NCBI GenBank assembly: GCA_951406725.2
Contig: OX597816.1
Location: forward strand, 159,216,001-159,280,000
DNA length: 64,000 nucleotides
Source: Octopus vulgaris
Taxonomy: Eukaryota
Reading direction: 5' to 3'
The notes beneath the pieces are model-generated. The model worked only from the letters and a program-made list of their open reading frames with translations. It did no database searches and was not told where the DNA came from. Below are positions 3,385 through 63,234 of this stretch, one piece after another. A program made the translations under genes and the position numbers. Numbering within the stretch: the stretch's first letter is position 1; every line of letters begins with the position of its first letter.

Positions 3385-6300
3385 GTGCGTAACCATTTAA
3401 TAATTTGCTGGTGAAATGTAGAACTAGGTTAATCTTTAGAAAAGAAATATTATATAACTAATGTTAGTAATTGTCCTAGCATAATTTAACCCTTTTAATA
3501 CCAATCTGCTAGAGATCACCCCTGCTTCTCTGTTACACTCCTACTGTTTTAAAGTGCTTTAAACTAAAACCCTCTATCAAAATATCATGTTAATTTATGA
3601 ACCAAATGGTATTTGGTTCATAATTCTTCATTAATTACAAACTCAATTGAAACAAAAAGGGTACAGTATTTCATCAGAACTAGGGTAACAAAAAGGTTAA
3701 GATCTAAATAGGAAATGGTTTGGTGATTGGGGTAAGAATTAAATATTGAATTACAGGAATTGAGAGTTAAGTTTAGTAGGAAATGATTTCAATCAACTAA
3801 TGACTGACTATGTATTTATTATTCTATAATGTTATAGAAAAAGACCTTAAGTTTAGGTATAGATTTATCCAGAAAGTTTTTGCTATTAATGCCTATGTTA
3901 GATTTTGGGGCAGTCAGATGAGGTACATACTATTAAAATTACAGTTTTTACAGTATTATTATTTTCTTTTTAACACAGGTTTTGTTGGAGCCCCTGGAGT
4001 CTTGCATGCATAATGGGCTTGCTACCTGCAGCCTACAGTACCATGCTATTAGTTCTTTTTCAGCTATCAAATATTTTTCTGATTATTCTGGCTACACCAA
4101 GGAGGCAGACCTTTTGCAACAGTTCTACTGGGCACCCTATTCCAATTTCTTTTATATTCCCCTTGATACCTTCTGATACTGTTCCCAAGGGCCCAACAAT
4201 AATCGGCACTACCTTCACCTTCTTCATTTTCCATACTTAAAAGCGTTGTATCTATCTATCTTTTCACCTTTCTTCTTGACTATTCGTAGGTCAAAGGAGC
4301 ATGCAACATCAACTATATAGCACATGTGGTGCACCTTGCCCACCACCACTTAGTCTGGTCTGTTATGTTCTAGCACCTGATCTGTTTGGATTGGGAAATC
4401 CCAGAGGATTTTGCTAGTCTCCGACTCCGCCACTCTCTGCAGTTTGCGCTCATACCATGTCTTGCCTCTCTCTAGCTCCCACTTTTTGCACAGTTTCCAA
4501 TGTAGCACTTTCACTACCTGGTCATGTTGCCACAACTTGTAATGGTTTGGGCAAGTCTAGGGCATTCATTCATGATATGGGAAATGGTTTCATCCACTCT
4601 ATTGCAGATGCGGCACAGCAGAGACACTTGCTCATTCCTAAGGTTGACCCTCCAGGTCATGGCCAAAGCTTGGTCTTGCCCTGCCAGTATAGTGCTCTTA
4701 TTCTCTTTTTTTAGTGTTCCTTTCATCAGCCAATCCCACCTGTTTTTTCCCACAACTTCTGTTGTGGCTACATAGAATTGATAGTGTAGTCCCTTCTTGC
4801 GTAATTCTTCATGTCTTTTTTGAACTTCTTCCTTTGTTTTCCCTTTTTTCTCTGCTCTCAATACTTCCTCGTTCCTAACTGTCACTAGCAAGGTTTCCTT
4901 ACTTTGGGTTAGGTATCTCATATGAGCTCTCTACTTTGATATGCATGCAGTCTTCCACTTATCAGTCCCCTTCCTCCATTTGCTCTCTTCATGTATAGGC
5001 AATCAGTGTCTGCACGTGAATGATGGGCTCCATGCATTGTTATGAGTTTTCTTGACTTCCTGACCATCTCCTTTAGCTCCTCCTCTGTCGACTTCAAGAT
5101 TCCAGCACCATACCAAACCACTGCAACTGCACACGAGTTTTATTGCTGAAATTATGTTTCTGGCATTCAGCTTTGAAGCCAAAATTTTTCTCACTCACTG
5201 CAAGTACTCTCTTTTTTTCTTTTCCTTCATGTCGTGATGTTTGATTCCATCTGCCTCAAGTATTCCCAGGTATTTATAACTGTCTTGAGGTTGAATTGCC
5301 TTCATTATTTCACTACTTGGAAACCATATGACTTCTGTCCTGGTAAACTTTCCACATCTTATCACCATCGTAGCACAATTTGAGAGTCCAAGTTATTATT
5401 ATTATTCAGTAGTCTTATCATGTGCTTTCACTGCACTACCAAGCACAGCTCTGTGTGCCTTAGGTATGTGCTGTGGTTTGTTGTGATGCTCTTATTTTTA
5501 CTGTATTGAAAGTGTTTTATGTAGGATGTGCAGTGCCTAGTAGTGCTATTTTCTGTATGTTATATATACTTGTTAGTCCTGGTGTTTTTGTTATGTATTT
5601 GTCTGAATATTTTTTATCATACCTTATGCACCTACTATGATAGGAATTGTTTCTGTTTTTAGACCCCACATTCAAGTTACCTCTTTTACCAAATCTTTGT
5701 ATTTTTAAGTTTCTCCGTTTCTTTTAGAGAAACATTGTCATCTATTGGTATTGATACATTAATTAGAAAGCATTTTTTTTCTTAGTGATCTCTGACAACT
5801 ATATCTGGCCTATTAGCCTTAATTTCTCTAACTGTATGTATTATCATTATGTTCTTTTCTAAACAAAAGAACATAATGATAAGCATTTCCTTCAAACTTT
5901 CATCTCTTATTTTTTAAAAATAATCAGACAGTTGATATTTCAAAAGGAAACCAGATTTGCTTTACCAGCTGATGATTGGAAATGTGTAACTCTTGAGTCC
6001 TGGAAAGCTGAGCAGCCTTTCAGTTATAATATTCTATATTTGTATTGAGTCCTGGGTTTTATTGCTTCCAGTGAATCAACATATATCAATGTCATCATCA
6101 TCATCATCATCGTTTAACATCCATTTTCCATGCTAGCATGGGTTGGACGGTTTGACTGAGGGCTGGCAACCAGATGGCTGCGTCAGGCTCCAGTCTTGAT
6201 CTGGCAGAGTTTCTACAGCTGGATGCTCTTCCCAATGCCAACCACTCTGAGAGTGTAGTGGGTGCTTTTTATGTGCCACCGACACAGGTGCCAGTGAAGC

Positions 6301-16865: not shown

Positions 16866-17245
16866 TCAAATAGAAAGAGTATTTATACTAGTTGTAGCAG
16901 AAGAACTAATGCTAAGTGATGTGGGGACTTCGCTTGTAGTTGCTGTAGTAACTGTTGTAGGTGTGGTAGCTCCATTGTCAACTGAAACATTTAGAGATAC
17001 AGTAGATGCAGAACTAGTTGCAGACGGTAGAGAAACAGCAGTACTGGAAGGTAATGAAGTTGTCGGGCATTGCAAAGGTTGTGTTAAAACATCGTCGCAT
17101 TCTTCCATTTTCAGAATTTCATTCTTGTATTTTAGTATTGTCTCTTTGCTTTGTTTTAAGCGTTCATTTAATTCAGCTATTTCATAACGGATTTTATTTT
17201 TAGCATTCAAGATATTGTTGACTGTTTTCTCTCGTTTTTCTTCAA
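16866..17245 (-). CDS. YEATS4: YEATS4 terminal coding exon (coiled coil plus Ser/Thr-rich tail)
   Basis: ttctttacag|TT, in frame with ORF 16866..17210, stop TGA at 16868-16866. Confidence 0.93.
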
Positions 17246-18589
17246 CTGTAAAGAAGGAAAAAGTTACATCAAGTTTACAGAGAAATCCACGAAACAGTTT
17301 AACATTTACATTCTACATGTTTTATATCAGGCACAGGCATAGCTGAGATACAGTTAGAGCTGAATCACAGGGTGGGTCAAGGAACAAGCATGGTCAAAAT
17401 GATTTTAAAGTTAGAAATTTATGAGCGTCAGCCACATTTTTCTTTTTACTTAGAGGAAAGTGAGTCCCCATGACCCTTTCCAAGGTTTCCAAGATGGATA
17501 GGAGGAAATGAGGAAGTTATTCTCAAACCAGAGATATTGCAAAAATGCTTGCAACAGAGTGGATTCTGATAAAAAAAAATATCCAAGGATCAAATGATGG
17601 TATTTAACTGTGAAACATCAAGTATGTATCACTCAAGAACAAGAAGAGTCATTTTAAAAGGTTTCCAAACAGCCATTACACATCATAATTCAATGTCTGT
17701 TTTCCATGTTGGAATGGGTTGGGCAGTTTAACAGGAGCTGATGAAACAGAAGACTGCCAAATTCTAGTGGTATGGTTTCTAAGGCTGGATACCATTCCTA
17801 AAACCATCCTCTTTACACAGTGTATTGGTTGCTTTTTTTCACATGGCACTGGCACTAGTCAGATCATCGAATAACACACAAGACTCAGTGGGGAGCAGTA
17901 CTGAGGGAGGTGGCTTTATACCAGGTAATGAGAGGCCAAAAAAAAATTGAAGGACAGGTACAGGTGTCTTGCTGTATGGAGATACATGGTTACTGTCAGT
18001 TGAATTTTGCTCACAAAGCTTTGGTCAAGCTGAGAGTATGGAAAACATACTCAAAGTGCTGTGCAATGTGATTGAACATGGAATTATTACATCAAATCTA
18101 TATGAATTGTTTATATACAATGCCTCTACCACTCACCAAACCTATACATTTACATATCTGTCACATCAGATCAATATACCTTTTATATTCATGCCTCCTC
18201 CATATCAAATTTATATGCCATTTATATACATCCACACCAAATCTATATATCATTTATATACATGCTTCCACTATTTCCAATCTATATATCATTTATAATA
18301 TTTCCCCTATATCAAATTAATGTCATTTAATTACAATACTTCTATCACAATAAATCTGTATGATGCTTAAAATAGCTGAGATATTCTCTATATTTGAGAG
18401 ATTAAAAGAAACTGCTGGCAAATACTTACAGTCATTTTCATGGCGATACGTTCCCATCATAATGGGACGAACATTGGTTAATAATTGGTGCATCATTTGG
18501 GTTGGATCTTGAAACATCTGCAACAAAGGAACCATCAGAAATGAAACAGAGAAGTTCTCTTCAAAATATAGTCATAAACAATGTTGAAA

Positions 18590-18628
<39 letters not shown>

Positions 18629-21600
18629 GTGAGAGAGCTGAGCTTGCCATCAAAGTGATACTGGGGTAAAATATACAAAGCCCAGTATATGCATCATAAC
18701 TACCCGTCTGATAAGGGTACACCAGATACATGCATTACAACTATATGTGCACAACATGGTGATCTCACATCAAAATAAACAGCACATGACCTTGCAAGTG
18801 GGGCCCAGTTAAAATTTTCTTCGGGTCAAGTAACCCATCCCACTTAAATGGTCCGTGAATAAGGGTTGTTTAAACATAAAACAGGTAGAATATTTGGATC
18901 AGATATGGCCGGCTTGAATGCTAAATGGTTAAAAGCAGTGAGAGATTAAGCCTACCACCCAAGAACAGGTTTCTGCCCACCCACTTTTATTCTCAAGGTT
19001 TAAGTTGACCCATAGGCTGTAGTAAAAAAGATTTGTCCAAGGGTGAACCCGAAACCAAATACTTGTAAAATGAAATTCTTAAACCCCACAGCTATAGCAA
19101 GGAAATAGAAATAGTTAACTAACACTACGATTAAGGCAGCGAGGTGGCAGAATTGTTAGCACACTGGGCAAAATGCTTAGCAGTATTTCACCCATCTTTA
19201 CGTTCTGAGTTCAAATTCTGCCTTTCATCCTTTCAGGGGTTGATAAATTAAGTACCAGTGAAATACTGGAGGTCTATGTAATTGACTAGTCCCCACCCAC
19301 CAAATTTGAGGCCTTGTGCTACCAATAGAAAGGATTACAATCATCATCATTGCTTACATGGGGTCAGGTGGAGATTTCCTAGGCTGGATGCCCTTTCCTG
19401 TTGCCAACTCTTTCTTACCTGTTTCCAGGCCAGACATATTTTCATTCATCATCATCATCATCATTGTTTAACGTCCATTTTCCATGCTGGCATGGGTTGG
19501 ACGGTTTGACTGGGGTCTGTGAAGCCAGGAGGCTGCACCAGGCCCCAATCTGATCTGGCAGTGTTTCTACAGCTGGATGCCCTTCCTAACACCAACCACT
19601 CCAAGAGTGTAGTGGGTGCTTTTTACATGCCACAAGGGGCCAGAGGAACTGGCATCGACCACAATCAGATGCTGCTTTTTACATGACACCGGCACAGAAG
19701 CCAGTCAAGGTGGCACTGGCATCAACTATGTTCAGACGGTGCCTTTTACATGATACCGGCACAGAACTAAGACAAGGAAACAAACATATGCATACATTCA
19801 TACACCTACACACACGACAGGCTTTTCCATTTCAGGCAACCAGATCCACTTACAAGGCTTTGGTGTCATCCTGGAGAAGACACTTGCCTAAGGTGCCACA
19901 ATGCAAATAAACCTAAAACCATGTAGTTGGGAAGCAAACTTCTTAACCAAGTGCACCTATCCAATACCTGTACCTATGATTAAATTGAAAATTATTTAAA
20001 ATAATATCGTAATATGCTTGAAGTTTTGTAGTATGTGTAAATGAGATGTTTGCAAATACTTTAGGGAATTGTTTTCTGAATTATCATAAGCTCATTAAAC
20101 AACATACATAGGATAATACCAGATCTTTTCTCTGTATTTTCATTCATTGATATCACCTTACTTCTTTTGCTTAACTCCTCACCTGCATTATTTGTGGTTT
20201 GCTGTGACAGATACCCTAGTTTTAGATTAGATAATAGGTGCACTGTATTCCTGCCTGATGTAAGAAGGGGGCTAAAAAATATAGGTAACAAGAAGGGCAT
20301 CTGATTGTAAAAACATTACCTAAAAGTTGGTAACTATGATGAGTATGATTAAACTGTTATGAGACCCACAAGACTAATAATCCTAATTGTTGCAAAGAAA
20401 ACAGCCTTAAAATGTTTGCTGTACCGATGGGAAATATAGACTTACCAATTCATCATAGAATTCACAAACTAATGATTTCTTTCCCAACATAATGTCTGTC
20501 TCACTTTGGAATAATTTTAATAAATGATACAGTGTTACCTGAAAGAAAAAGAGAAAAAAAATATTAAAAAAACAAGTCAATAGAATGAGGTGTGATTTGG
20601 TGGATGGGGATGGAAGAAAAATTGAAAAGGGTCTTTCAAAGTACCATATTTTAACACACATAAGGAACCCTTTTTTTGTCAAAAATAAGGTTAAAAAATA
20701 TGGGAGTTTCTTATACATGGATAGTATTATAATCCCTTACAAAACCTTTTTTCCAAATTTTAAGCCCAGAAAATTAGGGGTTTCTTTATACACAAGGGTT
20801 CTTTATACACGTTAAAATACAGTAATTTGTCTTGTGAAATCTGCATCAACCAAAATCTAAAAAATTAAAAATACCTAGCAGGATTTCAGTTAGTTTTAAT
20901 AACAGCTAAGGACACTTCATAGATGATAGAATGGTCTACGAATAGGACATGTTAATAAATACGTTTCCTAATGTTAACCACTGGAATATTATTATTAAAT
21001 GATACAGATTTTCAAAAAGGGTTCTTTGAACAAATTACTGGACCTCATAAATTCTGTGCCATGTAAAAAGCACCCTGTACATTCTGTAAAATGGTTCATG
21101 TTAGGAAGGACATACAGCCATAGAAAGCCATTCCAAAACAGATAATTGAGGCCTGGTACAGCTCCCCAGGTGTTCAGTTCTGGTCAAACTGTCCAACCCA
21201 TGCCAGCATGAACAACAGACATTAAATGATGATAATGATGGACATATCAGAACAGTTAACTGCAATTATAATAGCCATCTATGTATCATGCTTAATTACA
21301 GTTTAAAATACTATAGTTTTTGTCCAAGATAAAATCTCTTATAGACATACTGTCATAAAAAAACATGACATATTTGAAGGAAGACATAAAACTGTCTTGG
21401 CAGTGGCAAGAAAGAATACCAGATGCATTTTTGTCTTCTTGAGCATTGTCAATGAAGTGTTCTTGTTAGTCACACGCCTTAGAGGAAATTTGTTGCTTCC
21501 TATATAGGAAACAATGAATAATGAATAACTGCCAGGCTGTATAAAAATCTGGTGTACACACTCGAAGCAGCATTAAATTAAAATAGCCAACCAAATTCGA

Positions 21601-24600
21601 TGACTGGCACCCGTGCCAGTGGAGTGCTAACAGCTCCATCCGAGCGGGATCACTGCCAGAGCAGCTGTCTGGCTTTCGTGCCGGTGGCATGTAAAAAGCA
21701 CCATTTGAGCGTGATTGATACCAGCATCACTTTACTGGCACTTGTGCAGGTGGCACATGAACAGAACATTCGAGTGAGTTCGTTGCCAGTGCCGCTGGAC
21801 TGACTCCTGTGCAGGTGGCATGTAAAAAAACACCATTTCGAGTGTGGCCGTTACCAGTACCGCCAGACTGGCCCTCATGCCGGTGGCACGTAAAAGCACC
21901 CACTACTCTCTCGGAGTGGTTGGCGTTAGGAAGGGCATCCAGCTGTAGAAACTCTGCCAAATCAGATTGGAGCCTGGCGCAGCCATCTGGTTCGCCAGTC
22001 CTCAGTCAAATCGTCCAACTCATGCTAGCATGGAAAGCAGACGTTAAATGATGATGATGATGATGATGAATAAAGCAAGAAGGCAACAAAGCATCAATGT
22101 TCTCCCTAGCCACTGTCAGGAGGATTTGTCATCTTCCTCCAGTTTAACACAGCACATTCATAACAGTATAGAGGTAGACCACAATATCTTGCCTGTCGAC
22201 AGTGTATATATGATAAATATGATACAAAGTAGGATATATTAATTTAATATTGCTTCAATTGCATACAAAAGATTTTTAACACCAATTATACCCAAGGGAT
22301 AAAAATCATTTCTCAAGAACTACAAGGAATTGTTTCCAATGTTAGACCATTTTTCCGGGGTTGATATAATCAACTGTAAATTCCATCAAATGTGTGACCT
22401 CATGGCCATGTTAAAAACCAATATTATAATCAAACATTCAGCAGTGACCTCAGTGAAATTTGACAATCTCGAAGACTATTCTATTTGTTCTAACTGGCCT
22501 ATTTCATGACTATTGAGTGTAGTAATTTTGCTAACAGAAAAAACACTACCACCAAATGACATGGGAGACCACCCTGCTTTACTTAATTCACTGCTTCAAC
22601 AAGACACCTGCTCCTGTTCCTCTATTATACTTTCATATTGCACAATAGTATATTCCACTCAGTTGAGGGTTCTTGTCTTGTGAGTACTCGGTGACCTCAC
22701 CAGTATTGATGCCATGAAAGGCAGCGAGCTGGCAGAAACGTTAGCATGCCGGGCGAAATGCTTTGCAGTATTTCATCTGTCTTTATGTTCTGAGTTCAAA
22801 TTATGCCGAGGTCGATTTTGCCTTTCATCCTTTCAGGGTACCAGTTACGCACTGGGGTCGATGTAATCGACTTAATACCTTTGTCTGTCCTTGTTTGTCC
22901 CCTTGTGGGCAATAAAGAAATAAGTATTGATGCCATGAAAAAGCACCCAGCTGTAAAAACCATGCCAACCCATGCCGGCATGGAAAAGGGACATTAAATG
23001 ATGATGATGATGATAGCAGGCTATTTCAACATCATCATATTTTGGGATGATATCTCACTGTCAATAAAGACATCAGTTGTGGCCTATTCTGGGTTTGGTT
23101 ATATTATAAATGGTGTGCTTCTTGGCAGTACAACTTTCCTTGTGAACAAGAATGCTAAAGTGTTAGACCAATTATGTAAATATTACTGTAGGTGTGCTGT
23201 GTATAAGAAGCTTGCTTCTCAGCCACATGGTTCCAGGTTCAGTCCCACTGTGTGACACCTTGGGCAAAAGTCTTGTTATAGCTTGGAGCCGATCAAAGCC
23301 TTGTGAGTGGATTTGGTAGATAGAAACTGAAAGAAGCATGTCGTGTGTGTGTGTCTCCCACCAATACTTGACAACTGGTGCTGGTGTTAAAATCCCTGTA
23401 ACTTAGCAAAAGAGACCAATAGAATAAGTAACCAGGCTTAAACATTTTTTTAAAAAAATTAATGACTCCTGTCGATCCATTCAACTAAAAATTCTTTAAG
23501 GCAATGCCCCAGGATGGCAACAATCTAATGACTGAAACAAGTAAAAGATAAAGATTATCATTTAGTTCAATTCAATTTTAGGCTGTCTCCAACCCATTTT
23601 TATAGGGTTTTGCTCCAAATGTATTCTAATGCTTCTGGAGTTTTATTTCTATGTAAATTGTGAATTAACATAAAAAGATTAAAGATAATCTTCTTCAGTA
23701 TTGAGAAAAACTGCCACTTTTCTCAGCTGAATTTAATAACTTTCTCTCTAAAAGCAGGGAAATAACTTTGTCTTGCTTTGTTTTACATAAGTAATCAACA
23801 AACAGACAGAACAAGTGAAATAAACTATGAAAGTCACTGGTCATTAAACATTAAACAATATTAAATCTGGCAATGATGGTTTTTATCAGTTATTAATACT
23901 ATTCCCATGGTCCTTTGTTGCTTAATGCAAAACACACCAATAATATACCACTACTATCATTTTATTCAGACAATTAGACTGGAAGGGTCATGAAACACTA
24001 ATGGACTGAGGAAATTTACAAATATCTAAATAATCCTAAGAGTAGTGTATTGTTGGTAGAGATGGTGATGATAGTGATTGCTGATAAAGGCAATGAGAAT
24101 GGTGGTGATTATGATGAAGCTGATGATGATATAGCTCGGTCAACTTTTTAGAAGTAATGGGGGGAAAAGACAAGAATGTTGTTGATATTTTACTTACAGG
24201 TCTTTCATTACTGTCATTGAAATAAATCTTAATAACCACTTCAAATTCACCCCATCCTGTTTCTGTGACTTCGTAGGGAGGTTTTGTAACAACTGGAAAA
24301 GAGACAAAATATCATTTACAAACAGCCAAGCAAAAGGCAGACATAAGTAGTCTACAAGAGATAAATACAAGTTTGGTTGTGGGGTTAAGATGTTTACTTT
24401 GCCACTGTGTGATTCTGAGGTCAATCCCAGTGCCTTAGGCAAGTATACTACTGAATCTACAATGTATTTAGAGAAGTTCCAAACATGTAAGCAAACCATA
24501 GAATTGAGAAGTCTTGAAGTAAACTTCTCAAAGTCTGAAGTTTTGTTATGTATAAAAGAAGATTAGACCTTGCTAACATCAGGGAAACAGTTGTGTTTGA

Positions 24601-27600
24601 AACGGAGTAAATACAAACTCCATACAGTATGTCCAATGTAAGTTAGGGACACATAAAAGTTGAAGTGGAATCAGAGGCAGATTAATGGAGAAGATAGACT
24701 TTACTGTTCTATATTTAAGAGATGAAGAATTACATATATTATTTACATTTCACGGATATTTGAACTCATCCTGTTTGTTGTTAACACAATGTTTCATCTG
24801 ATATACCCTCCAGCCTTCATCAGGTGTCTTGGGGAAATTTCGAACCTGGGTTCTCATTCCTAAGGTATTTTTTGATGTTATTATTATTATTACTATTATT
24901 ATTATTATTCAGGTCACTGCTTGGAATAGAACTCAGAATCTTGGGATTAGTAGCCCGCACTCTTAACCACTACGCCATATGCCTGTGGGCATATGGTGTA
25001 GTGGTTAAGAGTGCAGGCTGGAGAGTATATCAGCCGAAACGTTATGTTAACAACAAACAAAATGAGGACAAATATCTGTCAAATGTAAATTTTCATCTCT
25101 TAAATATAAAACTGTATATCCTTTTATACCCAGGTCAGTTTTGCCCAACTCCCCCTTCAAATTCAATAAAATATGCAACAGTCAATGTAGTGAGATCAAT
25201 ATCATGTATTCAACCAGACTATTGGATGTGTTATACATTGCTGATCATTATGTGCTTTGCATCGTTTTAGCTTTTGAATAATGCCATTCTGCTGATTCCT
25301 CTTATCCCTACTTTATCTCTTAGCTTACTTACACCACACTGCTCATGATCATCAACATTTTATTGTCTGTCTTCCATGCTGGCATGGGTCAGACAATTTG
25401 ACAGGAACTGGCAAGCCAGAGGACTGTACCATACTCCACTGTCTGTTTTGGTATGGTTCTCACAGCTGGATGCCCTTCCTAAAGCCAACCACACAGAGTG
25501 GACTGGGTGCTTTGTATGTGGCATCAGCACTGGCATGGTTTGCTTTGGTATGGTTTTCACAGATGGGTGCCCTTTCCAAACCCATCCAGCTCACACACAA
25601 ATTTATATACCCAATATCTATATCAAGTTTTAATGCAGTTAGTGGTTGCTATGGAAACAAAAATCACTTATTTCTGAATGATTGCTGAAACACAAAGATA
25701 ATAAAATGAAAGAATACCTCTGTTTTGATTTGGATAACTTTCATGTAATTTAAAATGAACCTTCTTCACATAATTTGATAAATCCTGAAAGAGAAAGTAA
25801 ACAATATTAAAACTATATTAATACTTTACATAATTTATAAAGCACTGAGATGTTAATTTCATTTTCAAAAATCAAAAATTATTAGCTTTTTCTTTTTTTC
25901 ATGTCTTCATTACAAGATAATTAATCCTGATTACTGAAAAGCTTAAACTGTTGCCATATCATAATCATCATCATTTAACACTTGTTTTCCATGCTGGAAT
26001 GGGTTAGCTTTGGTCAAACCTATTTCTTTACTACCCACAAGGGGCTAAACACAGAGGGGACAAACAAGGACAGACAAACGGATTAAATTGATTACATTGA
26101 CCCCAGTGCGTAACTGGTACTTAATTTATCGACCCCGAAAGGATGAAAGGCAAAGTCGACCTCGGCGAAATTTGAACTCAGAATGTAACGGCAGACGAAA
26201 TACGGCTACACATTTCGCCCGGCATGCTATAGTTTCTGCCGGCTCGCCGCCTTTGGTCAAACCATCAAACCCATGTCAGCATTGAAAATGGACATTAAAC
26301 GATGATGATGATGAGAAGGAGGAGGTTTTAAGTTTTACAGCAATCAGGATTAATTATCTGGGGATGAAGACACGAAACAAAAAAATCTAGGTGCAGGTGA
26401 TAGATATATGTGAGAGGGGGGTCAGTGTATCTTTGTGTCTGTACGTGTCCCCCACCACTGTTTGACAACCATTGTTGGTGCATCTATGTCCACGTAACCT
26501 AGCAGTTTGGAAAAAAAAACTGAGACTTAGAAGAGTACAAGGGCCGATTCATTTGATTAAAATTCAAGGCAGTGCTCTAGTATGACCACAGTCTAACGAC
26601 TGAAACAAGTAAAAGAAACTAAAAGAAAAGAAATAGTCACTTTCATGAAAACTTTTTTTTAAAAAAAGCATGAATTCTATTTATGCATTTCATTTTTATC
26701 AATCTCTCAAATTCATCATGCATAATAATTTTCTTCAATTTTCAAATCTGTTTGATGTGTTCAGTATTTGAAAGACTATTTCATGTTTATTTTTATATCG
26801 TAGCTCAAGGAAGAACAGCAGTGTCCATGACCTTTCGCAGAGCCTCCAGGGCTGGTGGCATCGAAATGGAGTAAGAAACCACTTCTCATATGCTTCAGCA
26901 CATCAAGGTATCAAAATAGAGTGGCTAAGGTTAAAAATAAAGTTAATTAATCTAAACAAACAGCTTCAGGGGGGAGGGGTTAAGTCAATCACATCAAACC
27001 CAGTACTCAACTGTCGTTACCGATCCCCAAAAGGAAGAAAGGCAAAGTCGACCTCAGCAGAATTTGAACCCAGAATGCAAAATAGATGAAATGCCACTCA
27101 GCATTTTGCTCAGCATGCTAACGATTCTGCCAATTCACTACCTTAGCTTTTTATGAAAGTATTAATCAAAAAGAAACCTAAAAGGAGTAAGGGTTGGATC
27201 ACTAATCACAAGAGCAAAAGTTCTGATCATTCTATAGTGAAGTAAAATAAAAGTATATTAGGTAGTGGGGGGGGGGGCTCCCCAAAAGGGGTCTCAGGGA
27301 GTAGCGTCCCTGCCTTCCTGAGCTAGCTTCTCACATTTCTTAAAAATTGTGGTAGAGGCCTTGGTCTCAGGACCACTCATGTCTAGAAACTGAGGCTGGG
27401 GATAAGCAAGAGCATGCTCCCCATAGAAAATCCAGCTCCAAAAAAGCCTCATGATAGCAAGGGAGAATGAGCATCAGCCAGCCTAAAGGTTGGAGTGGAC
27501 TGCACCTGACTACCTCAGTTGCTATGGCACTGAGGTAGATCTGGCCACGCCTGTTAACAGGGACAAAACTCAGATTTAAAACACTGGATGAGGATGATGA

Positions 27601-30600
27601 GTGAATAAGATATTTTGAAGCCCAGGAGTTCTGAGTTCTTATCTTTTATAAATGTTTTTCTGCCTTTATTGGAAGTATATGAAATTTTTCATTACCAAAG
27701 TCCACTTAATTCGTTTGTTTACTGCCCATTTTGCCATGCTAATATGGGTTATTTGAGGCAGGATATTTACAGCCAGACCCCTCTTCCTGTAGCCAACCCT
27801 TACTTGTTTTCCAAGGAAATGCTTTCTTATTCTGTAGGTCTTCGAAAGTACAGAGCAACTGGATGTGATATGAACAAGTTAGAGACAGCTGCAGTTGTGG
27901 AACATCAAAATTTATGCACACACACACATAAATGACAAGCTTTTTTCAGTTTTTTGTCAACAAAATTCACTTGCAATGCACTAGGACTGGAGGCAATAAT
28001 AGCAGACACTTGCCCAAGACATCAGGTAGTGAGACTGAACTTGAAACCAAGTGGTTACAAAGTGAAATTCTTAACCAAACATCCATGCCTGTACCTCAGG
28101 TATAGATACTAGATCTGGTATGGTTCAGTCTAACACTATGGATTCTAGTGATCCAGGAATGGATTAGTGAAGTTGTTCAGAAAGCTACACTAGACATGTT
28201 AAAAGATTTAGTATTGTTCTTGAAAGAGTTGCATTTAAATACCACATACAGAGTTGTTGCAGTCTAACCCTAGGCCAGGTCATGACTGTGCAGACCTACA
28301 ATCAAAGGCATACTAACCATGACTACCCTGTTTTATTTTCAAGCATAGTTTATCTTGAACTTTATATGTTTATTAATATAAGTCACGATATTGAACTATA
28401 CTGTGTCCTTCCATTTTTAAGATAGTAATCATTTGAGTGAGAATTAGCTGTTATTTCCAGCCACAGAGGGGCTCCTTCACTGACCAGCCTGACTTATTAA
28501 AATAAATATTGTGGAACAGTGAAATAAATATTGGGTATTTAATCTTTCTGTTACCATTTATCTGTTGAAATACACAGCATTTGCTTCAATTCATCATCAT
28601 CATCATCCTTTAACGTTCGCTTTCCATGCTAGCATGGATTAGATGATTTGACTGAGGACTGGCGAACCAGTTGGCTGCACCAGGCTCCAATCTTGATCTG
28701 GCAGAGTTTCTACAGCTGGATGCCCTTCCTAATGCCAACCACTCCGAGAGTGTAATGGGTGCTTTTACGTGCCACCGGCATGAGGGCCAGTCAGGCGGTA
28801 CTGGCAACAGTCAGGCTCAAATGGTGTTTTTTTTATGTGCCACCTGCACACTGGCACAAGTGCCAGAAAGGCGACACTGGTAATGATCATGCTCAAATGG
28901 TGCTTTTTATGTGCCACTGGCATGGATGTCAGTTAGCTCTGGCAATGATCATGCTCAGATGGTGCTCTTAGCACTCCACTTGCACGGATGCCAGTCATCG
29001 AATTTGATTAATTTTGAAAATTATGAAGTTATTAAAATATCTTAGTCATTATTTACCTGGTGTTAGAAACATAAATTAGCATGAAATTTTGATGGAAAAT
29101 TTTAATGAAGATTGCTCAAGAAAAGGACTTTTGTACTGTAGAAGCAAGAGTGGTTTTCAGGTAGGTTGGCATAAAATTGGTTAATATATATAGCCTCACT
29201 TCAAATGGTTCTTACACCAAAGAAAAAGACTAGTAAATTCTGATCAGGTTCTTAAATAACAAAGCAAAAATGTCTTACTTCATTTCGGAATGATTTTACA
29301 TAAACTGTCCATTGGTGAGTGTGGCCATCTTCTTCTCGCTTCTTCCCAAAGTATCGGGCAATATTTCCATAGACAATTGGCTTAATAATGGTCAGTCCCT
29401 GGAATAAGAAATGAAATCATAAGAAAGGTGTAACTGTGATAAGCTGATGCATGTTGACCAAAAGAACCTTATGTATTGTTGTTACTCAGCAAAGCCGTTC
29501 CAGCTGTGACCATCACAACTTTCTTTCAAACAAAGTGTATTCATTCTTTTACTTGTTTCAGTCATTTGACTGCGGCCATGCTGGAGCACCGCCTTTAGTC
29601 AAACAAATCGACCCCAGGATTTATTCTTTGTAAGCCTAGTACTTATTCTATCGGTCTCTTTTGCCAAACCACAAAGTTATGGGGACGTAAACACACCAAC
29701 ATCGGTTGTCAAGCGACACGCAAACACACACACACATATATTATATGGGCTTCTTTCAGTTTCCGTCTACCAAATCCACTCATAAGGCTTTGGTCGGTTC
29801 AAGGCTATAGTAGAAGACACTTGCCCAAAGTGCCATGCAGTGGAACTGAACCCGGAACCATGTGGTTGGTAAGCATGCTACTTACCACACAGTCACGGGA
29901 TTAAATTATTCAGTGTGTATGAGATTGCATAAAGGTTATGTCATTGTCTTGGAAGTTACAATACTCGGTGATAATACAAAATAATTATCCCCAAACAGCC
30001 CCAGCAAATTAAGGAGCAGGGCTGTTTTAGGCATAATATCAGGAAATTGGAAACGAATGAGAAAACTCTTATGTGGTCACTCGACCTGCTAAAAATAGTA
30101 GCCACAAACACCCTAATGTTTTCAGAAAGACATTGGATAATGTGGTCCTGGATATACTGTGAATAGGGTAATAGGTGGTATAGTCTAATATCAGAACTGT
30201 GGGTGAATGAAATGCTGTAAAATGAATACTTGCAAAGAATAAAACAAATTTCAAACAAGGGTTTCACATCAATAAATCTGAAGATTTTAGATTCATTCTC
30301 TAATATAGATGAGATTCAGAGAAGTCACACAACTTTAAACCTGTTAAACCCGTTGAATGAAATGCCTATTAGTTCTTGATTATTTGTTAAACAGACGAAG
30401 CAAAATACAAATAAACTGTTACAAAGAGGCTTTATCAAAGAGTAAGATGCATTTGAGAAGGTGTGACGTCCGTGCAAAGTTGGTTCAATCGTGGATCGAA
30501 ACTGGTTTCTCGGAGAAGCTAGGAGGGGATGTAACTCAAATTTACGTCGTAACTGTAACTCGGATAAAAAAATAGACAATGAAATAATTGCCGAATGTCA

Positions 30601-33908: not shown

Positions 33909-35282
33909 TATATGTCGTCCTGATGTCACCAATGTCTTTGGCCCATTGTTCTACGATTGTGTATTGCTGTTTCAGCTGCGTGTTATACCAAAATGAACAG
34001 CCGCGAACATAATATCAGGTTTTTAAGCTAAATCTTTTAACGCTTCATTGAACACACCTAAAACTTAACACAGTTAAAACTTTGGCGTTGCTTGAAGTGG
34101 TAGTGTATCTCTTCTTTGTTGCTGACTAAAAATAGATTTATCTTTCATTCCGGTTACCCTTCATTGACATTTGAAATGGATAACCAAAAATTTCATATTC
34201 ACGTTGTAATGCTTTTCTGTTTTTTTAAGAAAGGAGAAAATGCTGCAAAGACTAGCAAAAACAATTGTGAAGTTTATGGTGATGATGATGTAGGTGAATC
34301 AACTGTTCGAAGGTGGTTTGCAAAATTTAAAGCCGGAGAGTTTAGCTTGGAAGATGACAGTCGTAGTGGAAGACATTCAAAATTGGATGAAGATGTTTTG
34401 AAGACAAAAATAGAAGACTCAAATATCACGACTAGAGAACTTGCAGAGGAGTTGGAAGTTTCTAAAGGTACGGCTCATGAACAACTAGTGAAGCTAGGAT
34501 ACATTTCTCGCTATAATGTATGGGACCCTCACCAACTCTCAGAAAAGAATTGCTTGGACCGGTATTCTGTTTTTGATATGCTTTTGAAACGGAATGAAAG
34601 CATGCCTTAAAAAAAAAACCTGTGACTGGAGATGAAAAATAGATTGTGTACGAAAAGGTAGTGTGGAAAAGATCCTGGAGTTTGCGTAATGATCCCCCAA
34701 AACAGCAACCAAAGACGAATATCCAAGCTCAAAAAGCTATGCTTTGTGTTTGGTGGGTTCATAAAGGCATTATTTATTATGAGCTTCTCCCACAAAACCG
34801 AACCATTAATTAAGATGTGTACTGTCGTCAGCTGGATAATTTGAACAAAAAAAATCAAAGAATTGAGACCGGAGATTGCCAACTGGAAAGGGGTAGTGTT
34901 GCAACAAGACAATGCCCGACTACATGTGTCTTTAGCTACCCGAACAAAGTTACATGAACTTCACTGGGATCTCTTAACCCATCCACCATATTCTCCTGAT
35001 ATTGCGCCATCTGACAACCACTTGGTTTTTGTTTCTACAGAACTCATTGCAAGGAAAAACATTTAACGATTTAGATGAATCTCAAAATGCATCTAGATAA
35101 TTTTTTTCTTCAAAACCAGTCAATTGTTATGCTGAAGGAATATTTAAGTTGCCTGATAGACAGGCAAGGATCATTAATAATAATGGAAAGTATTTCATTG
35201 AATAACATTTGTTGAAAGGTCAGTTATTTATATTTCTCTTTGCATATTAAAAAACGCTCAGAACTTTCCGGACAACATAATA
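33909..35282 (+). mobile_element. Near full-length mariner DNA transposon, transposase pseudogenised (ATG 34176 to ~35204)
   Basis: MDNQKFHIH...VGESTVRRWFAKFKAG..LEDDSRSGR, WDPHQLS, VTGDEK*, LQQDNARLH, HPPYSPDIAPSDNHL, with stops/frameshifts. Right end gaactttccggacaacataa-TA; left end tatgtcgtcctga is a partial match. Confidence 0.9.
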
Positions 35283-41010: not shown

Positions 41011-42280
41011 AGTTCTTCACGCACTCACACACACACACACACATTACTCGATTTCGAGTAATGCCATTGCTTTCTTAAGCACGAGCAGCATGGATGTGGC
41101 AGTGATAGGTGTCTCTTGCATCAAATGTTCAGAGAGTAGCCATCCACGCTGACACATGCCTTCATTCCATCATGACTTAATCTAGAGTAAGAACAACACC
41201 ACCTGATCCTGGGGTGCCTTTAGCAAAGTCTCCTGAGTTGAAAACATTTAGGCCACGTCTCCGAACTAAGAATAACTTCCTCTCTTCATGTCACCGCTCT
41301 TGGGGGAGGTCTATCCTTGGACTTTACAAATATTTCAAAACAAAATGGGTGTCTTTTTTTTTAAGATAGAAAGATGTTTCTCAAAGAGAAGGGACGGGTA
41401 AAACTTGTTATTTAAATGGTGTTTAATCGCAAGTCAACCCTGGCTGAGCAGACCTATGATCAAATATTTTTCCAGCTGTGATCATGTACATTTATAACTA
41501 CAATGGCCAATGTGTCCTTTTTTTCGAGAGTGACGTAAAATTTGAGGTAATACTGCTGCTGTTTCTAGCAGGTTGAAGGATAATCAAGAAGACATCTTGT
41601 TGCTTTTTATTATAGACTGTTGTTTTCTAACCCAGAACTGTCCTGCTCCAGCGTACTTATGATCAAAGATATTCCATTTGTGATCATCTAGCCTTATTTT
41701 CTAGTGTATCTAGAAATACATTATCCAATGCATTCAGTCTTATTTACGACGATAGAGTGTAATTTGAAAGAGAGCTGGCTGCTATTTCTAGCAGGTCGTG
41801 CGACCACTCAGAAACCTTCTTTAGTTCTTAACTCTTTACCAGTTCAAAGCATTTCCATAAATTTGTCCTGATCATTAGACATTAAATCTAATATTTATGA
41901 ATATTAAATCTAGTATAAAAAACTTGGCTGATTCATTATTTGGACGGATGAAAGAGTGATTCTGTTTTTACTATGTTTTAAACGTGAAGACATGTTCCGG
42001 GAGTTGGAATGGAACGCTGAGATTCTGTTAGAAACGCTGATATTTTACTGTTTGTCTTTGGTTTTAGTGATGTATTCTTCTTATGTGGATATTCACATGA
42101 AAGAACCAGTGAACACCAAGAAGCCAGTGAAAATATGTATTTGAATGTCTGAAGAAAACGCTATGATTACTAGGAAATTCCAATAATAACATTAAGAAAT
42201 TGGTATACAATTTTAACCAAAAGAAAAGGAAAATGTATTTTAGAAACTGAACATTCTGAAATCGCGATATTATTTGCAAG

Positions 42281-43126
42281 ATGGTATTGTTCAAAAGTTC
42301 TTTCTTGCCGATAATTCTTTGTGCATTTGCTGCTGTAAGCTTCGGTTTCGCCAAAGTTTTAATCTTAATCTTTTCGATACTCTTTTTGAAAGATGCCACA
42401 CAGACATTTAAGAAATATTTCAAAGCAACTGAACCAGTCAGAGGCGTGATACGTCGTATGTTATTTAGAATTATTTGGTATTGGCAGACTAAGATTAACG
42501 GGGAAGTGTTCAAACACAAAGCTCTCCAACGTGCTCAGATAGAATGTTCCCCAATATTAAGTATAGATAATAATCTGAGGAAGAGTGGCTTTGACGATAA
42601 TATAATAGATACATACATGGACATTTTAATTAAAACTTACGGTGAAGGAAATGAAAAACTAATACCGACCCGAACCATAACTGATATTGCTAAAGGTAAT
42701 TATTGTCCCGAATTTAATGAAAACTTAGCGATTTATAATACGCTGTTTGGTATAATCCAAATGAGACAGCATTCCGCTTTGATAGTCATCTCGATCGAAG
42801 AGAAATACATTGTTTACTTTGATCCATGTATTCATGAGATGGATAAATGCAGCAAAAGATACATCAACAAATGTTTGGAATTTTTGAAGAATGACCGTAA
42901 GTTGAGAAAAATTCATTGGAAGATTTACAAATTGGAAAATGGCCCTGAAAAGTTTTCTCGTGAAATTGAATGCGATGTTGCTGTGATGGCTTTTGCAGAA
43001 TGTTTACTACGTAATACAGGTCCTTTCATCATTAGCCCACCTTTTCTAAGAAATGAAAAAAATAAAATTCTAAACGCTGTCTCGGCACATGTCCTCTGTG
43101 CCAATAATGAATCAGCGAAAACATAA
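42281..43126 (+). CDS. Intronless divergent Ulp1/SENP-family (peptidase C48, clan CE) protein with N-terminal hydrophobic segment, 281 aa
   Basis: Uninterrupted 846-nt ORF in AT-rich DNA, with start context aagATGG. Motifs GFDDNIIDTYM (~WLNDEIINFYM), QHSALIVI (~HWCLAVV), IVYFDP (~ITYYDS) and PEKFSREIECDVAVMAFAE (~PQQxNGxDCGxFxxxYAD) occur in the SENP order. H164-D181-C231. Confidence 0.8.
   Translation: MVLFKSSFLPIILCAFAAVSFGFAKVLILIFSILFLKDATQTFKKYFKATEPVRGVIRRMLFRIIWYWQTKINGEVFKHKALQRAQIECSPILSIDNNLRKSGFDDNIIDTYMDILIKTYGEGNEKLIPTRTITDIAKGNYCPEFNENLAIYNTLFGIIQMRQHSALIVISIEEKYIVYFDPCIHEMDKCSKRYINKCLEFLKNDRKLRKIHWKIYKLENGPEKFSREIECDVAVMAFAECLLRNTGPFIISPPFLRNEKNKILNAVSAHVLCANNESAKT

Positions 43127-57613: not shown

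Positions 57614-63234
<5,621 letters not shown>

Follow-up and report, generated by a model that had tools for sequence, protein, structure and literature searches.

A palindromic intronic repeat of Octopus vulgaris that joins a tRNA-like head to a Penelope-like end with a hammerhead motif

A 64,000-nt stretch of the Octopus vulgaris genome (hereafter the window) contains a palindrome in which each arm starts with a tRNA-like head and leads into a hammerhead ribozyme motif. Which kind of mobile element combines these parts, and how does it come to be doubled head-to-head? The first-pass annotation had described a chimeric family in which the palindrome couples two divergent RNA polymerase III (Pol III) transcripts, each carrying a dimer-dependent ribozyme. 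Our analysis points to a different use of the same parts. It is rather probable that the family is a non-autonomous, tRNA-headed retroelement with a predicted Pol III transcript, mobilised in trans by Penelope-like enzymes. The palindrome itself likely arose by fold-back of the cDNA at the end corresponding to the 5′ end of the element.

The element lies inside an intron of roughly 1.4 kb that separates two consecutive minus-strand exons of a YEATS-domain gene (Table 1). It is an interrupted palindrome of 415 nt, with arms that were 94% complementary over 24952-24983/24988-25019, 85% over 24741-24819/25012-25090, and 88% over 24702-24735/25083-25116. None of 100 shuffled sequences folded as stably as the whole element (z = -18.8). 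The first base of each arm is tRNA position +1 (24984 in the left arm, 24987 in the right arm). Summed depth of family contigs climbed at 24685-24719 and dropped at 25105-25139. The palindrome and all motif positions of the first-pass annotation were found where it had placed them, including the tRNA-like head with an A box and a B-box-like word on the minus arm and the transposon-like termini, with TA and terminal inverted repeats at both ends of the local copy. The pLTR part had no second copy within the 64-kb window. A protein search with the plus-strand frame of the element gave no match; an IDH3 exon and an Ulp1-like ORF were also used as queries in the protein searches.

Table 1. Positions of the element, its parts and the neighboring exons in the window
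Feature	Position	Strand	Basis
Whole element, two arms head-to-head, TA flanking each end	24702..25116	.	Palindrome and family depth
Axis, 2 nt separating the two tRNA +1 positions	24985..24986	.	Arm alignment
tRNA-like head, left arm, +1 = 24984, cloverleaf decayed	24912..24984	-	Box matches; ARAGORN negative
A box, exact consensus TGGCNNAGTGG	24967..24977	-	Consensus from PMC8969392
B box, 33 nt past the A box, mutated at 24928	about 24923..24934	-	Family majority GTTCGA
(AAT)n linker	about 24878..24909	-	Bridged to both neighbors in other copies
3′ part resembling a Penelope pLTR: ribozyme, tail, and relic frame starting at ATG 24821 inside CUGAUGA	24702..24877	-	Sequence and family copies
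Minimal type I hammerhead motif; predicted cut 24788/24787; broken in stem II (24797, 24796) and stem III (24790)	24783..24828	-	Motif reading and family majority letters
Optional 33-nt tail, from short family end (about 24735) to long end (24702-24707)	24702..24734	-	Family ends and translations
Right-arm head fragment, including A box 24994-25004; ends at 140-nt deletion junction 25014/25015	24987..25014	+	Arm alignment; X11 loose end before 25015
Right-arm pLTR-like remnant: stem II intact 25016-25035, GAAACGUU 25036-25043, stem I broken at 25044, 13 nt deleted near 25090, tail ending at 25116	25015..25116	+	Arm alignment and family letters
Exon of the host gene following the element, YEATS profile 39-66	24201..24293	-	Pfam profile match
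Exon of the host gene preceding the element, YEATS profile 19-38	25713..25778 (approximate)	-	Pfam profile match

The local copy is a dead, broken member of a high-copy family. Of 129 aligned positions, 15 differed between the arms, including 4 differences of CpG type; if both arms originated together, the substitution rate in PMC13282606 would make them very roughly 16 million years old. The deletion of about 140 bp proposed for the right arm measured exactly 140 nt in the arm alignment, and a further 13 nt were missing from the same arm. A GGCT microhomology had been suggested for the larger deletion. GGCT is indeed present at the junction (GTGC/AGGCT), but the head has a G ahead of its GGCT, so that a microhomology join requires one additional G>A change, which is plausible at this CpG site. 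A loose end in run X11 fell at the 140-nt deletion site, where family copies run on through CUGAUGA. Both ribozymes are damaged, as had been noted: neither local motif matched the minimal-hammerhead descriptor (0 matches in the window, both strands).

Other copies were followed in contigs from 4 of 24 runs and in spurious translations of family members. In all three DNA or unlabelled runs (X1, X12, and X11; flank depths 56, 14.9, and 8, respectively), the contig depth summed over the element was thousands to 10^5 times the flank depth, a ratio that is not a copy number. The repeat is clearly very abundant under each of the three organism labels of these runs. Family contigs were also present in run X16, which is only guessed to be RNA and was kept out of the transcription argument. 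The top translation match (85%, 34 residues) was to Octopus bimaculoides (UniRef), and by this protein-level likeness the family appears to be present in that species as well. Among the 20 translation matches, three (P0125, P0128, and P0136) were judged to be chance and dropped, and no reverse transcriptase was evident, with the possible exception of P0137, which we take to resemble a LINE fragment. No autonomous element with the same 3′ end came to light among these matches. Pattern scans of collections without eukaryotic genomes gave no match in metagenome contigs (two scans), in genome contigs, or, for the two longer patterns, in viral contigs; a 16-mer pattern hit seven viral loci, where the likeness extended over no more than 16-19 nt and was attributed to chance.

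Head, linker, and ribozyme were bridged by contigs from other loci in five records, each with 8-15 other letters, which makes the chimeric structure a property of the family rather than the result of repeats nested at this site. The axis was also spanned by contigs, with up to 24-36 letters to the contig end, and numerous joints from left to right arm with differing deletions were found in other copies. Two-armed copies are therefore common and deletion-prone, and they undergo many different internal deletions, as the local copy did. The loose ends reported here are the 24 best supported, with 1543 more beyond them, and their contig counts are not ratios. Among these 24, one-armed copies had CATGG past 24983 followed by unlike flanks (85, 54, and 53 contigs in three runs), and unlike flanks also lay ahead of 24702/24706.

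The head kept its promoter boxes and lost its cloverleaf, as in SINE heads. ARAGORN found no tRNA in it, even at a relaxed setting. In the family, the B box is restored by 24928 A>C (79% of X1 depth). The combination of a perfect A box and, after a gap of 33 nt, a B box carrying two mismatches arose by chance twice in 20 random 64-kb sequences. The spacing of the boxes lies within 30-35 nt and the unit has no internal T run, both as in tRNA-derived SINEs. The path from head to ribozyme was indeed free of TTTT, as had been claimed; none occurs in the 284-nt left (minus) arm. A second GGTTCGAA motif on the minus arm (24846-24839) had two mismatches to the B-box consensus and lay 120 nt from the A box; at that distance and with those mismatches, it need not be a promoter element.

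The minus-arm ribozyme consists of GACAC-CUGAUGA (24828-24817), GAAACAUU (24795-24788), and GUGUU (24787-24783). Its predicted cut lies 197 nt from tRNA +1, close to the 195 nt estimated earlier. The first-pass annotation had placed its interest in the family, where an intact catalytic core and stem I were to be sought, and the majority letters supplied both: the CUGANGA/GAAA/UH core together with stems I and II was present in the family majority only. Stem II is restored at 24797 (95-98% of depth) and stem III at 24790 (73%, 55%, and 58% of depth in X1, X12, and X11, respectively); at 25044, where stem I of the right arm is broken, 98% of the X1 family depth has G. The arm written in majority letters matched the minimal-hammerhead descriptor with one extra base, a stem II of 6, a palindromic filler of 2 nt, and a stem I of 5, and none of 60 random 64-kb sequences did. 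CTGANGA alone was at chance level in the window (26 observed, 25.5 expected). The majority motif has the extra base after A9, the G10.1-C11.1 pair, and the palindromic 15.2-16.2 described for metazoan Penelope hammerheads (Cervera 2014, PMC4209133). Rfam reported no hammerhead or tRNA in the local copy, its only matches being hairpin-driven, microRNA-type, and below gathering scores, and the minimum free energy (MFE) of the local ribozyme was not better than that of shuffles. In the stem codons, W/Q stood here versus R/R in 4 of 16 related units; CpG decay could explain this difference, which is guessed from codons only.

The 3′ part resembled Penelope elements in its ends as well as in its ribozyme. 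The family had two 3′ ends, 33 nt apart. Among the 24 best-supported loose ends, the long ends fell at 24701-24708, and the loose ends behind 25090 (259, 260, and 242 contigs) lost family likeness after ...AATAATGTA, which corresponds to 24735. The same picture was obtained with eight octopus-type translations: three departed at the short end, one ran through the tail, and four were uninformative (two stopped near that point and two earlier). We rejected a pure alignment artefact caused by mismatches at 24733-24737 as the sole cause of copies ending at 24738: other contigs aligned through, right-arm loose ends decayed at the same point, and the translations agreed. Both 3′ ends start with TACA on DNA, and nested terminal repeats would also be a possible reading. 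An optional tail of 30-40 bp and an adjacent inverted copy are hallmarks of Penelope elements (Craig 2021, PMC8557442), and the tail was 31 bp in the elements of Arkhipova (2013, PMC3846280). Here an inverted copy adjoins the 5′ end both in the local element and in the axis-spanning contigs.

Spacings pointed in the same direction. In the octopus element, the distance was 34 nt from ATG to the cut, 120 nt from ATG to the long end, and 86 nt from the cut to that end. In the Anolis element PAc, the ORF starts at stem II, cleavage falls at +26, and reverse transcription starts internally at +111-118, hence 85-92 nt from cut to end (PMC11167929). Related units without a head made up 9 of the 20 translation matches, and 7 of these 9 were head-to-tail tandems with a period of 40-43 codons that extends from the ribozyme to the end of the tail; one terminal unit in these tandem relatives had no tail. 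Penelope-like elements occupy 6.83% of the O. vulgaris genome (190 families).

The tail and TA stand at both ends of the local copy, as they would in a Tc1/mariner MITE; in Penelope elements the tail is frequently at one end only (Craig 2021, PMC8557442). The first-pass annotation had indeed offered a MITE as an alternative. An old Penelope/SINE chimera would then have been doubled once and spread as DNA by a transposase recognising TA-CAGT-like ends. Terminal repeats of Tc1/pogo elements typically begin with CAGT, the local copy has TA on both sides and symmetrical termini, and a mariner transposase remnant (34107-34607) lies in the same window. The family ends argue otherwise: many copies were one-armed or ended 33 nt inside the terminus, without a single fixed outer terminus, and the terminal part was homologous to the units in head-to-tail tandems. 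In addition, orthologous contigs of the left flank (X11 and X12, about 94% alike) broke off at exactly 24702 rather than past the TA at 24703, and had a further 182 and 190 letters beyond that point. Neither run allowed a clean TA empty site to be read, 25140-25174 being without cover in both. At the local copy, no duplication of the target site beyond TA was found. The short-end and one-armed copies leave the MITE alternative weak, and we consider it quite improbable.

A third form of the family bears on whether the short unit is the master copy. Among the 24 best-supported loose ends, conserved sequence unlike the arms stood upstream of the head, behind 24991, in all four runs (60, 40, 48, and 7 contigs). 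It may be the flank of a source gene or part of a longer element, and in the latter case the short unit may have arisen from it by truncation. The copies would then be inverted solo pLTRs or 5′-truncated copies of a longer Penelope-like element, whether autonomous or not, the tRNA-derived piece being incidental and the short unit never a master; transcription would come from upstream (Pol II or tandem arrays), and the cDNA would fold back on a short palindrome located at the 5′ end of the pLTR. The conserved sequence, which forms a short imperfect palindrome with the head, is the main support for such a longer element. Adineta pLTR 5′ ends carry palindromes of 18 and 38 bp (PMC3846280), and minimal hammerheads on opposite strands, 100-700 bp apart, have been described in Schistosoma. 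Pieces without a head also exceeded heads: depth on the pLTR part was 4-7 times that of the left-arm head bin, with head reads split across two arms, and this excess indicates many copies without a head. Against a longer master, the majority A and B boxes were near consensus at canonical spacing while the cloverleaf had decayed and the unit stayed free of TTTT, and both arms began exactly at tRNA +1. The upstream sequence had an AT-rich, TATA-like word approximately 30 nt before +1, as the flank of a source gene might. On balance, we judge descent from a longer element to be unlikely.

We next consider whether the ribozymes drive the cycle. Because the two motifs are on opposite strands, the ribozymes of the two arms reside on separate, identical RNAs. 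The palindrome thus favors no particular partnering, and the coupling of two dimer-dependent ribozymes proposed in the first-pass annotation was not upheld; what stood of its chimeric family is the tRNA-like head joined to a Penelope-type minimal hammerhead with an intact majority core. In a retrozyme-like cycle, divergent Pol III RNAs would dimerise through their hammerheads and cleave to unit-length or circular RNAs, which would then be reverse-transcribed. The intact majority core and a palindromic stem III suited to dimers are consistent with such a cycle, Schistosoma has SINE-like elements that pair a Pol III promoter with a hammerhead (PMC6765202), and animal retrozymes have been proposed to derive from Penelope elements (10.64898/2026.07.22.740005). 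Nonetheless, no family end fell at the cut site among the 24 best-supported loose ends, MFE folds of the majority motif, single or paired, contained no active dimer, and minimal hammerheads cleave poorly even as dimers (PMC4209133). One ribozyme per RNA also yields no unit-length circle. The two start sites are only 2 nt apart. TFIIIB leaves its footprint upstream of the Pol III start, so that the upstream TFIIIB region of each unit would be the A box of the other. We give a retrozyme-like cycle a very slim chance.

For the tRNA-headed retroelement mobilised by Penelope-like enzymes, the following steps are proposed. Pol III would start at tRNA +1 or a few bases before it, read through the TTTT-free unit, and reach the first T run of the flank (24658). 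By analogy with the Anolis element, a Penelope protein would bind the pLTR-like part and nick AT-rich DNA, and reverse transcription would start internally at one of two sites. Internal starts would give two 3′ ends 33 nt apart, without a poly(A) tail or a defined RNA 3′ end, and would explain how sharp DNA ends can be copied from a Pol III RNA whose 3′ end is ragged. A cDNA 3′ end reaching a few bases across the axis (CCC-nn-GG) could fold back and prime the second arm, yielding the palindrome, and failure to fold back would leave a one-armed copy. The RNA would start a few bases across the axis, and fold-back would take place on CCC. Cutting would part the head from the reverse transcription start sites, which makes the uncut RNA the likely template. 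In PAc, hammerhead cleavage is dispensable in vitro and requires protein (PMC11167929); together with this separation, the ribozyme would be an inherited or regulatory part rather than the engine, that is, either pLTR baggage or a protein-assisted switch.

Several known systems come close to the family. The minimal type I hammerhead with an extra base and a palindromic stem III is that of endonuclease-positive Penelope pLTRs (PMC4209133), and the ATG where stem II begins and the similar spacing from cut to end are also Penelope features (Frangieh 2024, PMC11167929). Penelope insertions share the optional tail (33 nt here), the inverted head-to-head copy, and the junction palindrome (PMC3846280, PMC8557442), and such palindromes have been interpreted as self-priming (Arkhipova 2013, PMC3846280). 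Penelope elements that are short and non-autonomous have been described before (PMC8557442). In contrast to Penelope elements, the octopus unit has no reverse transcriptase or endonuclease ORF, its 5′ half is an A/B-box head with an (AAT)n linker, and its inversion is exactly at tRNA +1, not at a random truncation.

Animal non-LTR retrozymes are tandem direct repeats with circular RNAs (PMC7229834), whereas in the octopus family tRNA-headed units stand singly or inverted; tandem direct repeats with a type I hammerhead, the mark of that class, were found solely in its head-less relatives. The terms "tRNA" and "polymerase III" are absent from a recent retrozyme preprint (Li, Clavereau & Pollet 2026, 10.64898/2026.07.22.740005). 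The closest precedent for the combination is Schistosoma Sm-alpha/Sj-alpha, a repetitive retroelement in which a Pol III promoter is followed by a hammerhead; those elements differ in being arrayed in tandem, their canonical hammerheads release copies from multimers, and neither a Penelope tail nor palindromic pairing is described in the available text of that source (PMC6765202).

SINEs are normally defined as LINE parasites. Like tRNA-derived SINEs, including the octopus OK, OR1, and OR2 families (Ohshima & Okada 1994), the family has an A/B-box head, is dispersed, and reaches very high copy number; OR1 and OR2 are cited as CORE-SINEs, and the comparison with all three was made by citation, not by sequence. 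Unlike them, it has a 3′ part that is pLTR-like, not LINE-like or poly(A), its simple repeat is internal, and it showed no duplication beyond TA. The family therefore works like a SINE and is not classed as a LINE-dependent SINE. A comparable logic is that of TRIMp3 elements (Cassandra, Helenus, and Ajax; Kojima 2024, PMC10886601), which likewise captured a small-RNA gene as their likely Pol III promoter and are non-autonomous members of a non-LINE class. TRIMp3 elements depend on LTR retrotransposons (LTRs, PBS, and a TSD of 4-5 bp), and the octopus family would be their Penelope counterpart.

Each part thus has a precedent. A tRNA-headed, Penelope-tailed, palindrome-spreading family was undescribed in the literature searched, a search that did not cover Repbase, Dfam, SINEBase, or the Zenodo O. 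vulgaris library; so abundant a repeat probably has a library entry. If the preferred reading is true, then the "shared tail" rule would be extended to a third retrotransposon class, as TRIMp3 elements did for LTR elements. Thousands of short natural insertions of an approximately 280-nt unit would provide test material for the origins of the Penelope tail and inversions, which have been termed undefined (Craig 2021, PMC8557442).

A bolder version, which we find possible but doubtful, is a SINE driven by Pol III and dependent on Penelope elements, in which transcription starts a few bases across the axis and cDNA self-priming rebuilds the palindrome at each jump, giving hairpins of approximately 570 bp with their own promoter flank. 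Such a self-rebuilding family would offer a minimal substrate of natural origin for showing how Penelope tails and inversions are made. In frog, ADAR is known to act on self-contained intronic palindromes, and both the hyper-editing signal and the double-stranded RNA (dsRNA) potential are exceptionally high in octopus (PMC5625713). If the hairpins do rebuild themselves, then thousands of them in introns would be a major source of the dsRNA behind octopus hyper-editing.

The element (24702-25116) and about 60-70 bp of its right flank were apparently absent from the orthologous alleles of two other organism labels (runs X11 and X12), the interval concerned being 24703-25190 of the window. Such alleles may reflect either an insertion in one lineage or a palindrome-driven deletion in other lineages. 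Variation within the family was also seen in the loose ends of contigs (the parts at which likeness to the window ceases): one variant carried a 9-bp tandem duplication at 24741-24749, directly ahead of the short 3′ end.

Upstream of the tRNA-like head (at 24991), some family copies carried a differing, conserved AT-rich sequence, found in contig loose ends among the matches listed for all four sequencing runs. This sequence contained a TATA-like word approximately 30 nt before +1. The AT-rich sequence is possibly the flank of a source gene or part of a longer element.

Other features of the window are listed in the table; for the Ulp1/SENP-like frame, a further protein search found no close relative. 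A second tRNA-like head with A and B boxes lay on the minus strand at 58195-58256 (A box at 58249, gap of 33 nt); it was weakly similar to the head of the element and had no hammerhead part. Another short, high-copy repeat was located immediately to the right of the element (25200-25290), with a peak of contig depth and loose ends at 25229, and a second inverted repeat occupied 25889-25947 and 26327-26385 (arms of 59 nt, 85% complementary, 379 nt between them).

Genes, open frames and transposon remnants in the window.
Feature	Position	Strand	Basis
YEATS4/GAS41-like gene, intron-rich	~16866-29400	-	Pfam YEATS matched by two exons
NAD-dependent isocitrate dehydrogenase subunit, exons	59501-60924	-	protein search
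Open frame, 288 codons, Ulp1/SENP protease-like	42260-43126	+	protein search
Mariner transposase remnant, Mos1-type HTH	34107-34607	+	
LINE zf-RVT remnant	4514-4930	-	

Seven protein-database matches (P0123, P0124, P0129, P0131, P0132, P0138 and P0140) were spurious translations of a related hammerhead unit devoid of the tRNA-like head. The head-less unit formed tandem arrays with a period of approximately 120-129 nt on ENA contigs of 65-358 kb. These tandem units are a retrozyme-like sister family.
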